Virus record (IMG/VR): IMGVR_UViG_2547132488_000014
Location: 1 to 11,916 of that record
Origin: a virus
Lineage: Duplodnaviria; Heunggongvirae; Uroviricota; Caudoviricetes
Length of the DNA stretch: 11,916 nucleotides
Strand: one strand, 5' to 3'
Position numbers and translations under genes: made by a program. Shown one piece after another: positions 1 to 1,893 of this stretch. The notes beneath the pieces are model-generated. The model had not been told where the DNA came from. It did no database searches and worked only from the letters and a program-made list of their open reading frames with translations. The stretch's first letter is position 1. Each line of letters opens with the position of its first letter.

Positions 1-501
1 TTTTATTGTCTCAGGGTTGAGATTTTTTTCTTCAAATTGTTTAGCATCGCCAGATAAAAATTTATTAAACTTAGTTAGTTCGCCTGCAGGAACAGTTCTT
101 TGTATTTCTACATATACAACATTTCGCTCTGGGAAATTATCTCTGCGCCATTTCATCTGTTTAAATTTTGCAGTCCTGTTAATATTTTTATCTTTTGAAA
201 TAGGCTTGTCAGTCAATTCGAATCCAATTTCCCAATCACTCATTGAATCATCCCCATAAAATGATTTAGGGAAAAACTTGCTTGGCTTAACATTTTTATA
301 AGCGAGAGCTACAGCACCTAATATAGTCGACTTCCCTCCACCATTAGTCCCGATAAGAGCTGTAACTGGTGTTTTAAACTCCACAATTTCCTCATCAAAC
401 CCTCTGACATTTTTTAATGTGATACGTTTAACATATTGATTGAATTTATTATCTTGAACCTTACCCCTTTCTAACTTCAATTCTGCTGGAGATAATTTCA
501 T
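1..501 (-). CDS. P-loop NTPase with SMC/ABC-type Walker A motif; N-terminal 167 codons only, 3' end beyond the left window edge
   Basis: Manual minus-strand translation from ATG (499-501) is open to position 1: MKLSPAELKLERGKVQDNKFNQYVKRITLKNVRGFDEEIVEFKTPVTALIGTNGGGKSTILGAVALAYKN... Walker A GTNGGGKST. AAGGA Shine-Dalgarno about 6-8 nt upstream; in-frame stop immediately upstream (511-513). Absent from the ORF track because it has no stop inside the window. Visibly AT-rich compared with the tail genes. Confidence 0.65.
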   Translation of the reverse strand, partial: MKLSPAELKLERGKVQDNKFNQYVKRITLKNVRGFDEEIVEFKTPVTALIGTNGGGKSTILGAVALAYKNVKPSKFFPKSFYGDDSMSDWEIGFELTDKPISKDKNINRTAKFKQMKWRRDNFPERNVVYVEIQRTVPAGELTKFNKFLSGDAKQFEEKNLNPETIK

Positions 502-534
502 TTTAATTCCTTAGTTATAATCACAATAAACATC

Positions 535-579
535 AACTTCACACTAATAATTTCATTTAGAAATTATTAGTGTGAAGTT
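535..579. repeat. Perfect inverted repeat: 20-bp arms (535-554 and 560-579) around a 5-bp spacer
   Basis: AACTTCACACTAATAATTTC / attta / GAAATTATTAGTGTGAAGTT; arms are exact reverse complements. Lies 34-78 bp upstream of the ATPase start codon, so a candidate operator or insulating hairpin. Confidence 0.9.
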
Positions 580-596
580 TATAACCAAACAGACGT

Positions 597-668
597 TTCA
601 TCGCTTCATCGCTTCATCGCTTCATCGCTTCATCGCTTCATCGCTTCATCGCTTCATCGCTTCATCGC
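597..668. repeat. Tandem array of nine perfect copies of the octamer TTCATCGC (GCGATGAA on the - strand)
   Basis: Direct reading: units start at 597, 605, 613, 621, 629, 637, 645, 653, 661, with partial units on both flanks. Intergenic, 96-167 bp upstream of the ATPase start. No intervening spacers, so not a CRISPR array. Confidence 0.95.
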
Positions 669-887
669 TTACCAATATATGTCTTCTCGTTACATAAGAA
701 AAGCATCAGCTGAACGTAATGTCGGAAGCCCCATTGGAAAACCGTCACACCTAATAAATTCAGTACGTTATAAAACAGGGTTGTGATATTTTAAGCCAGT
801 ACCCATGCTAGTAAATATCTACTTAATACATTGATTTTTATGTGTTAAATAAAATCGTTGCCTACATATTGCCTCACTTCGACAGTA

Positions 888-907
888 AGCCCGCAACGTT
901 GCGGGCT
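888..907 (-). terminator. Palindromic GC-rich hairpin 5 nt downstream of the methyltransferase stop codon; putative terminator
   Basis: AGCCCGCAACGTTGCGGGCT is a perfect 20-bp palindrome. The U-tract is better in the + direction (TTTGTCTT) than in the - direction, so terminator function for the - strand operon is uncertain. Confidence 0.45.
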
Positions 908-912
908 TTGTC

Positions 913-1704
913 TTATGCTTCGATCGCCGTTTTGAGCCGTTGTGTTGCTACATCAAAATAATGATCACTGGTTTCTATACCAATAAATTTGCGTCCTGCT
1001 TTCAGCGCTGCAACACCCGTTGTTCCCGATCCCATAAAAGGATCAAGGACTGTTCCACCACTATTCGCAGTCCTGACCAGTTCTGCCATAAGTTCTTCTG
1101 GTTTTCCGGTCGGGTGCATTTTCTTTGATGGGATAACCGGGAACGTCATGCAGCCGTCGAACGGTCCCGAAGGCGATTTATCTAAATGGCCTTTACTGCC
1201 CCAGACGATGTATTCGCACTGATGCCGGAAATACCCCGTATGGGGTGTTCGTGACCCCCTTCCTTTGTTCCACGCAATGATGCCGCGCCATGTAAAGCCA
1301 CTGGCCTGAAACGCATCGGTTAAAGCTGGTAATTGTCGCCAGTCAGTAAATACCAGGGCATAACCGCCCGGCCTGACTGCGCGGTGTGCCTGTGCCATCC
1401 ATAATTGTGTCCAGTAAGCCCACGAACGGGCGTCCATGTTTTCACCCGCGAACCCATCAAAACGGTGAAGGCTCTCGCCGTTCAGATATTTTGCATGGCT
1501 GCCCTGGTTGGTGCGTCCGGCCTTGTGTGTCGCACCCGAACTGTAAGGCGGGTCAGTGATTAAGGCATCAATGCTTTCTGGCTCAATCAGCGGCAATATT
1601 TCCAGCGCATTCCCACGACAGAGCGTGGCATTGTCAGTCTGATAAACCTTAGTGTGTTCCGGTGTATGTGCTGGTTGGTGCTGGATTGCGATCCCCACGG
1701 TCAT
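913..1704 (-). CDS. DNA amino-methyltransferase, beta-class (N6-adenine or N4-cytosine), orphan: no cognate restriction gene in the window
   Basis: 263-aa ORF with motif IV DPPY (ITDPPYSS) N-terminal to motif I FxGxG (DPFMGSGTT), the circularly permuted order typical of beta-class N6A/N4C methyltransferases. ATG at 1702-1704. Confidence 0.88.
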   Translation of the reverse strand: MTVGIAIQHQPAHTPEHTKVYQTDNATLCRGNALEILPLIEPESIDALITDPPYSSGATHKAGRTNQGSHAKYLNGESLHRFDGFAGENMDARSWAYWTQLWMAQAHRAVRPGGYALVFTDWRQLPALTDAFQASGFTWRGIIAWNKGRGSRTPHTGYFRHQCEYIVWGSKGHLDKSPSGPFDGCMTFPVIPSKKMHPTGKPEELMAELVRTANSGGTVLDPFMGSGTTGVAALKAGRKFIGIETSDHYFDVATQRLKTAIEA

Positions 1705-1846
1705 AACTCCTCATGTGTGTGGGGTGCTCGATGGCTCTCGTTATCTGGTTAAGTGTTTTGCAGCGCGGACATTTTATTTCAATGTAGTGAAATGAGGCGC
1801 GGGCAAGTAGTTTGTTGCAATTTTTGCATCGTACATTTTGCGTCAT
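1649..1846 (-). CDS. com: Com-like zinc-finger protein (phage Mu Com family translational activator), overlapping the methyltransferase start
   Basis: Translation MTQNVRCKNCNKLLARASFHYIEIKCPRCKTLNQI... has a CxxC-N16-CxxC zinc ribbon closely resembling Mu Com as recalled (RCKNCNKLL...HIEI.CPRCK). ATG at 1844-1846 with AGAGG Shine-Dalgarno 8 nt upstream; an in-frame GTG at 1853-1855 is the alternative start. Stop at 1649-1651 is 55 nt inside the methyltransferase ORF, in a different frame. Confidence 0.7.
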   Translation of the reverse strand: MTQNVRCKNCNKLLARASFHYIEIKCPRCKTLNQITRAIEHPTHMRSYDRGDRNPAPTSTYTGTH

Positions 1847-1893
1847 TTGCGGCACCTCTTGTGTGGTTACTGCTGCCGATATGATAACAAATC

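Follow-up and report, generated by a model that had tools for sequence, protein, structure and literature searches.

The DNA analysed here, a stretch of 11,916 nucleotides hereafter called the window, is part of a P2-like prophage. Genes for the sheath, tube and tape-measure proteins and for GpU lie on its plus strand, and those for GpD, Ogr, hok/sok, a TM2 protein, Com and a DNA methylase on its minus strand. Phage Chuche has the same gene order, and its methylase gene abuts attP and the integrase gene. The raiA-proximal end of the prophage is formed by a minus-strand gene for a HEC-04 defence nuclease, which extends beyond the window start; 3' to this gene are a truncated methylase fragment and then the host genes raiA, bamD and clpB. 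The features discussed below are collected in Table 1.

The 489-residue product of the complete gene matched the PADLOC HEC-04 model end to end (residues 2-488), in which it resembles the HEC-04 and OLD-family nucleases of P2-like prophage cargo regions, and also matched Pfam AAA_15 and AAA_21. In complete genomes it is annotated as 'ATP-dependent nuclease'. The TOPRIM assignment was taken from the published description (bioRxiv 10.1101/2024.01.29.577857), not from our Pfam search. HEC-04, in which an ABC-ATPase is joined to a TOPRIM nuclease domain, protects E. coli against T4 and T5, and this defence depends on Walker A and metal-binding residues (bioRxiv 10.1101/2024.01.29.577857; PMC12111858). 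The HEC-04 assays were run without inducer 'due to apparent toxicity' (bioRxiv 10.1101/2024.01.29.577857). IbfA of R64 was considered as a close comparator and rejected at 28% identity over 60% of the protein.

Window positions 1-882, that is the gene start and 382 bp upstream, constitute one module, which was found in 17 of 5,426 complete E. coli genomes and always beside raiA. Its upstream neighbour differs between strains and is Com/methylase, hok or a yafO toxin pair. Outside the distal 60 bp, the E. coli variants of the module diverge by about 1%.

Table 1. Features at and upstream of the HEC-04 gene start, in window coordinates.
Feature	Position	Strand	Basis or remarks
HEC-04 ABC-ATPase/TOPRIM defence nuclease, first 167 codons of 489 aa	1-501	minus	PADLOC HEC-04, E = 1.8e-203
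Shine-Dalgarno AAGGAA	507-512	minus	5 nt before ATG; outside hairpin; unpaired in centroid fold
Extended palindrome, 23-bp arms, 1 mismatch (C534 opposite T580)	532-582		repeat finder
Perfect palindrome, 45 bp	535-579		arms 535-554 AACTTCACACTAATAATTTC and 560-579 GAAATTATTAGTGTGAAGTT; spacer ATTTA 555-559; mismatches = 0
Best sigma-70-like site: -35 TTCACA 576..571, 18-nt spacer, TG 555..554, -10 AATTAT 552..547	547-576	minus	consensus match only
Tandem octamer array (ATGAAGCG)n in gene sense, 9 units plus partial unit to 670	594-670	minus	repeat finder, strain comparison
Upstream blocks common to E. coli and Salmonella-type loci, including GTGTGACGG at 750..742	688-794	minus	79-86% identity
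Distal boundary of shared ATPase module, including GC-rich hairpin 887-908	883-912		homology stops at 882

The sequence-only reading described a palindrome with 20-bp arms, no mismatches and a 5-bp spacer, lying 34-78 nt upstream of the ATPase ATG (501..499, minus strand), and both the geometry and the location were borne out by the sequence and the repeat finder. In the extended form the 23-nt arms (532-554 and 560-582) are 96% complementary. The same reading held the repeat to be far beyond chance, and with this we agree: the longest perfect arm (loop of at most 12 nt) was 11 nt in 30 shuffles of the whole window and again 11 nt in 300 shuffles of its AT-rich first 900 bases. For an 18-nt arm, allowing up to 3 mismatches, the expected number of occurrences in the window is 0.01; two were found, and these are the palindrome's own arms. 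RNA folding, which had been proposed as a check, gave a stable gene-sense hairpin of -27.2 kcal/mol (z = -8.0), equalled by none of 200 dinucleotide shuffles; the corresponding DNA hairpin has an energy of -19.4 kcal/mol (z = -11). Thus, whether computed for the RNA of either strand or for DNA, the hairpin energy lies 8 to 11 SD below that of dinucleotide shuffles. The hairpin was still present in a 331-nt fold and dominates the ensemble fold. Since 16 E. coli copies, each fetched independently, have the identical palindrome, as do short-read assemblies, an assembly artefact is ruled out. The palindrome is real and far beyond chance, yet chance is the wrong null.

In each of the 17 carrier genomes among the 5,426 complete E. 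coli genomes the palindrome occupies a single locus; the two hits obtained per genome record represent one palindrome matching both strands. No other occurrence was found in the E. coli genomes, viral contigs, plasmids or phage records searched. A dispersed repeat or the end of a mobile element (REP/BIME, MITE or IS ends) was therefore rejected, there being one locus, no viral-contig match, and a spacer region that matches no plasmid or phage. The palindrome is invariant in all 16 fetched E. coli copies, but because the modules differ by only about 1%, its invariance is uninformative on selection, and an argument for selection on this ground was rejected.

More divergent loci were informative. 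Salmonella-type loci contain an intact 490-aa gene (94% protein identity) in the same raiA neighbourhood, and fall into a type A (L055, L057, L059, L060) and a type B (L056, L058). Their upstream region is collinear with that of E. coli, but the palindrome and the octamer array are both missing from it; at the array site the Salmonella types have GGTAAGAGAGAAAATGATGTAAG, whereas E. coli has GGTAAGCG(ATGAAGCG)n. The sequence-only reading had stated that it would be refuted by otherwise identical loci with a missing palindrome and unchanged expression. The sequence half of that statement describes what was found at the Salmonella-type orthologous loci, where the palindrome is absent and the gene is intact; the comparison bears on this half. 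The Salmonella-type leaders form no comparable hairpin, their folds (z = -0.7 and +0.8) being no better than those of shuffles, and a conserved RNA structure was rejected on these grounds. Homologues with about 77% identity were found in Enterobacter, in Pectobacterium and in another P2-like prophage, where a 78% identical HEC-04 homologue occupies the tin/old hotspot of P2, between replication gene A and the portal gene. No comparable inverted repeat was detected upstream of these homologues of about 77% identity or of 20 more distant HEC-04 loci. A family-wide regulatory motif was likewise rejected: in the 200 nt upstream of 23 homologues (41-94% identity) the best perfect arms were 4-7 nt, the exceptions being two unrelated G+C-rich hairpins located further upstream. 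The palindrome is thus dispensable for retention of the gene and is not a feature of the HEC-04 family, since orthologues and homologues do without a comparable repeat. No cis-regulatory palindrome has been described for HEC-04, and the other HEC-04 genes examined here do not have one.

A number of minor observations were made on the Salmonella-type sequences. The approximately 1.1 kb upstream of the gene, in which no ORF was called (L055 1700-2000, also L056-L059), is dense in iteron-like motifs in both orientations, such as CATCACA at an 11-bp period and GTGTGAYGG/CCGTCAC; in E. coli a single GTGTGACGG remains of these (window 742-750). Many Salmonella draft contigs (L051-L055) start or stop inside the nuclease gene, and the protein clusters P0015 and P0078 (the latter with 243 members) are partial. 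This hints that a repeat or an insertion breaks the draft assemblies inside the gene.

When the E. coli sequence was aligned with the two Salmonella-type lineages, conservation was found to be unequal across the palindrome (left and right are given here on the gene-sense strand). Of the 20 nt 5' of the palindrome, 15 are identical; the left arm matches at 8-9/20 positions (40-45%), the right arm at 13-14/20 (about 68%) and the 33-nt 3' flank at 23-24/33. The right arm thus resembles the flanks, which are about 73-75% identical overall, and there has been no net change in length. With the flanks and the right arm conserved, the left arm low in identity and the length unchanged, the left arm appears to have been overwritten by the exact complement of the right arm. 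In addition, the 16 E. coli copies show a single SNP in the proximal 92 bp, from the ATG to the array: C534A, carried by strain A_5, which makes the 23-bp arms perfect and yields a 51-bp palindrome; only 2 of the 276 possible substitutions in this 92-bp stretch can do so. The asymmetry of the arms and the perfecting SNP are therefore a signature of quasipalindrome template switching, in which one arm is ancestral and the other its complement and polymorphism raises complementarity. Such template switching is documented in E. coli (PMC7202029), as is the perfection of inverted repeats (PMC7202029; PMC5941160), and it has been proposed as the reason why long perfect inverted repeats are in excess, and persist, between the genes of proteobacteria; in the K-12 part of that survey every repeat detected had arms shorter than 20 bp (PMC5941160).

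We consider the case for a template-switch origin of the palindrome to be strong, as judged from the aligned sequences. The palindrome would be an inverted duplication of recent date, confined to the E. coli lineage and formed in situ, in which intrastrand template switching (quasipalindrome correction) overwrote the distal arm (left, gene-sense 5') with the complement of the proximal arm. The readings offered earlier for this element had left out a mutational origin, and the comparative data favour template switching. In common with the described quasipalindrome systems (PMC7202029; PMC5941160), an imperfect repeat seems to have been made perfect by copying one arm, a single-base change (here in one strain) perfects flanking pairs, and long perfect arms are over-represented by mutation and not by selection. 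There are also differences: classic quasipalindrome reporters change one or a few bases, whereas here about 20 bp were apparently overwritten, and the event is deduced from the Salmonella-type comparison and not observed as in the reporters.

If the palindrome is a template-switch product, it could be a neutral by-product, a footprint in a dispensable AT-rich spacer that has no selected effect and persists because 45 bp with a 5-nt spacer are short enough for stability. The restriction of the palindrome to one lineage and its absence from orthologues with intact genes agree with this, as do the match of arm asymmetry and perfecting SNP to mutational bias, conservation that is no greater than the module divergence of about 1% predicts, and the position next to an unstable tandem array. 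Nevertheless, the palindrome lies on the -34 to -78 segment, where a change of structure or sequence should alter promoter or leader function, and it has been kept unchanged in three upstream contexts and in hosts from four continents. On balance we regard neutrality as an unlikely but serious alternative.

The position of the palindrome relative to possible promoter sequences was then considered. In two scans of the 140 nt preceding the ATG, the top sigma-70-like score fell inside the palindrome. Initiation from this site is predicted near position 540, which would give a 39-nt leader. A mirror-image sigma-70-like site is present on the plus strand (538-567), and the TG-N-(A/T)ATTA core is the same in all three aligned lineages. 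Promoter-like sites as such are not enriched, 4 having been found against 2.3 +/- 1.5 expected from shuffles. These sequence matches weakly suggest that the gene may have a weak promoter of its own inside the palindrome. It should be noted that a 12-nt sequence, AAATGAAATTAT in gene sense, occurs twice here: the copy at window 547-558 covers the palindrome loop and right arm, and at 493-504 it forms the start of translation of the nuclease gene. The loop ATG does not vary in the alignment with the Salmonella types, and in each of the three lineages a mini-ORF of 5-7 codons begins with it. Another mini-ORF, MFIVIITKELK, has at its end an ATGA that overlaps the start codon of the nuclease.

The sequence-only reading had proposed an operator for a dimeric repressor. 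Here a dimeric or tetrameric repressor encoded elsewhere, or the nuclease itself, would bind the dyad and occlude the embedded promoter. As in the palindromic operators that overlie promoters (lac, LexA, phage repressor), the dyad overlaps the predicted -35 and -10 of the best promoter-like site, although that promoter is a consensus match only, and a toxic product would gain from repression. In addition, type B has a weaker dyad with the same centre (TAGTACC-GTAT-GGTATTA), while type A has CCATATGG there. Against these points, a search of related genomes for the palindrome and an adjacent regulator, which had been proposed as a check, gave no support: no regulator gene is linked to the palindrome in the three upstream contexts (Com/methylase, hok and yafO), which have no neighbour in common, and the palindrome is absent from the Salmonella types. 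Nor does the 412-bp spacer contain a conserved small ORF; a hidden small regulator there was rejected, the ORFs of 25-41 aa being without ribosome-binding sites and not kept in the Salmonella types. No second copy of the arm was found in the window or in the 5,426 E. coli genomes. CRP (TGTGA-N6-TCACA), LexA, Fur and the Ogr box (TGT-N12-ACA) were rejected on spacing, which was checked by eye. Furthermore, 45 fully paired bp far exceed what protein recognition needs, being two to three times the usual operator length, and a newly templated arm would need to fit a pre-existing protein. The operator is thus unsupported by a linked regulator, a second site, a match to a known operator, or conservation at the Salmonella types and 23 more distant HEC-04 loci, and we consider it improbable.

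A terminator scan flagged the palindrome on the gene-sense (minus) strand. It has the stable stem and short loop of a terminator (20 bp and 5 nt, where 3-8 nt is usual for the loop), but the stem is not G+C-rich: only 5 of its 20 pairs are G-C, and the base reads A-U, A-U, C-G, U-A, U-A. The tail 3' of the stem, GAUGUUUAUU, is an interrupted U-tract with scores of -2.3 to -3.6 by a TransTermHP-style formula. The plus strand scores similarly, and an asymmetric U-tract was therefore rejected as proof of a terminator. Among background 15-mers of this AT-rich stretch, 4-8% score as well as the tail, and 36% as well as the tail of the 20-bp stem. It was thus fair to say, as had been done from the sequence alone, that this is not a standard intrinsic terminator, given so few G-C pairs and so marginal a tail. 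The arrangement resembles the intrinsic terminators and attenuators found between co-oriented genes, in that a stable hairpin followed by a U-rich segment precedes, in gene sense, a gene that needs low expression. Typical terminator stems are, however, 5-14 bp and G+C-rich, whereas this one is 20-23 bp and 75% A+U with an interrupted U-tract, and the alternative antiterminator pairing and conserved leader peptide of attenuators are missing. Leader-peptide attenuation was rejected, as a 14-codon ORF running into the left arm is found only in window-type copies; in the yafO-type copies ATG TAA stands in its place, this replacement being present in half of the E. coli copies, and in the Salmonella types ATG ATG TAA. 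A known RNA family was rejected as well, since Rfam at E up to 1 gave only sok, elsewhere in the window.

The reading that we put forward, tentatively and at somewhat less than even confidence, is that the palindrome is a structure-forming element of templated origin that damps or insulates a toxic gene, with a promoter possibly inside the repeat. The element would sit on the core promoter and leader of the toxic HEC-04 gene, and because of this location any function that it has is likely to be structure-based and to require no partner protein. A transcript begun further upstream, at the methylase, hok or yafO genes or at a distal promoter, would fold here into a hairpin of 20-23 bp (-27 kcal/mol), after which comes a U-rich stretch. 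This hairpin would cause leaky termination or pausing, or be processed as double-stranded RNA, and would thereby uncouple the nuclease gene from upstream transcription. With the promoter inside the palindrome, the hairpin would be absent from the gene's own mRNA. The apparent toxicity of HEC-04, which implies a need for low expression, argues for such damping, whereas the A-U-rich stem base, the interrupted U-tract and the orthologues that have an intact gene and no hairpin argue against it. The insulating effect itself is only weakly indicated.

A more specific role for the RNA is as an RNase III site. This enzyme needs roughly two helical turns of stem, a length that the hairpin reaches, and the hairpin dominates the ensemble fold; cleavage of the 20-23 bp perfect stem in read-through or long-leader transcripts would then set the stability of the nuclease mRNA. 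The stem is not conserved in relatives, and we think this role very improbable. If the palindrome does damp or insulate the gene, a toxic defence gene carried as prophage cargo would have gained cis-control in one mutational step and without a dedicated regulator.

The octamer array lies upstream of the palindrome. Its full units (594-665) are nine copies of CGYTTCAT on the plus strand, or ATGAAGCG on the gene-sense strand. Across E. coli strains the copy number is 7, 8, 9 or 13 (window 594-670, L001-L008 and L061-L067 were compared). As at a contingency locus, repeat number differs between close strains: ETEC1717 has 7 units and ETEC1718, from the same study and with nearly identical locus coordinates, has 8. 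The array would have arisen by slippage in the same E. coli lineage as the palindrome, and such slippage, evident right beside the palindrome, supports a mutational origin for the latter. In gene sense the octamers read ATG AAG CGA TGA, a mini-ORF of three codons with a stop that overlaps the ATG of the following unit, and short-read assemblies (L071, L072) break within the array.

It is conceivable that the palindrome acts as a switch at the level of DNA, either by extruding a cruciform under negative supercoiling or by presenting two mirror-image, mutually exclusive promoters. Nuclease expression would then follow supercoiling or phage-induced topology, with phase or spacing determined by the variable octamer array. 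Mirror-image promoter-like sites on both strands, a stable DNA hairpin and the variability of the octamer copy number are consistent with this, and in the window-type context a plus-strand terminator (887-908, followed by TTTGTCTTAT) could end a divergent transcript. That terminator is missing from the hok and yafO contexts, though, the promoter-like sites are no more numerous than in shuffles, no Rfam family matches, and the proposal is purely a sequence inference; we judge it quite improbable. Further still, array and palindrome might together form an evolvable expression switch for the toxic defence nuclease, in which each 8-bp step of the array would turn the elements upstream with respect to the palindrome, and in which the output of a cruciform or of two exclusive promoters follows supercoiling or phage-induced topology. 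We give this joint reading very little credence; if it is true, anti-phage immunity in E. coli would here be under the control of a simple-sequence contingency locus.

The order of parts, namely tandem repeats, a hairpin and a toxic defence gene, is also that of type III toxin-antitoxin systems (ToxIN-like). In those systems, however, the repeat unit is about 34-45 nt as against 8 nt here, and the toxin is a ToxN/AbiQ endoribonuclease and not an ABC-ATPase/TOPRIM nuclease (AAA_15/AAA_21/HEC-04); moreover, the octamer array is absent from close orthologues. A type III system was rejected on the shortness of the repeat unit, the identity of the protein and the lack of an Rfam hit, and a retron was rejected for want of a reverse transcriptase.

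The kind of element seen at this locus is already known, while this instance is undescribed. Its general significance is small, because a few E. coli strains alone carry the element and orthologous loci do without it. Any influence on expression would be local at most. It does provide a clean natural case in which template switching appears to have built, and to be still extending, a long perfect palindrome, and it serves as a caution that a perfect palindrome need not be an operator.

Several observations concern the neighbouring genes. The GC-rich hairpin at 887-908 lies just beyond the methylase stop codon and has its T-tract (TTTGTCTTAT) on the plus strand; it would terminate transcripts antisense to the methylase gene and not those of the gene itself. 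Where hok or yafO lies upstream, another hairpin is found at the module boundary, with a compensatory change (GTTACCCTC/GAGGGTAAC versus GCTACCCT/AGGGTAGC). At window 913-1855, on the minus strand, the gene for a Com zinc-ribbon protein runs into the beginning of one for an N6/N4 DNA methylase, an arrangement of overlapping genes that resembles com/mom of Mu, although the methylase family differs; in strain A_5 this methylase gene is frameshifted. Between the nuclease gene and raiA, every E. coli copy has a methylase fragment lacking the N-terminus (L001 4485-4784), and the nuclease module in window-type strains therefore lies between a full methylase gene and a remnant of one. This suggests that com and the 5' part of the methylase gene were replaced in an older prophage, and that recombination or a second integration followed. 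Finally, an Rfam match to sok at 2598-2755 on the minus strand (47.6 bits, below the gathering score of 59, E = 7.7e-9) lies beside an annotated Hok/Gef gene, which indicates a putative hok/sok module between ogr and the TM2/Com/methylase genes.
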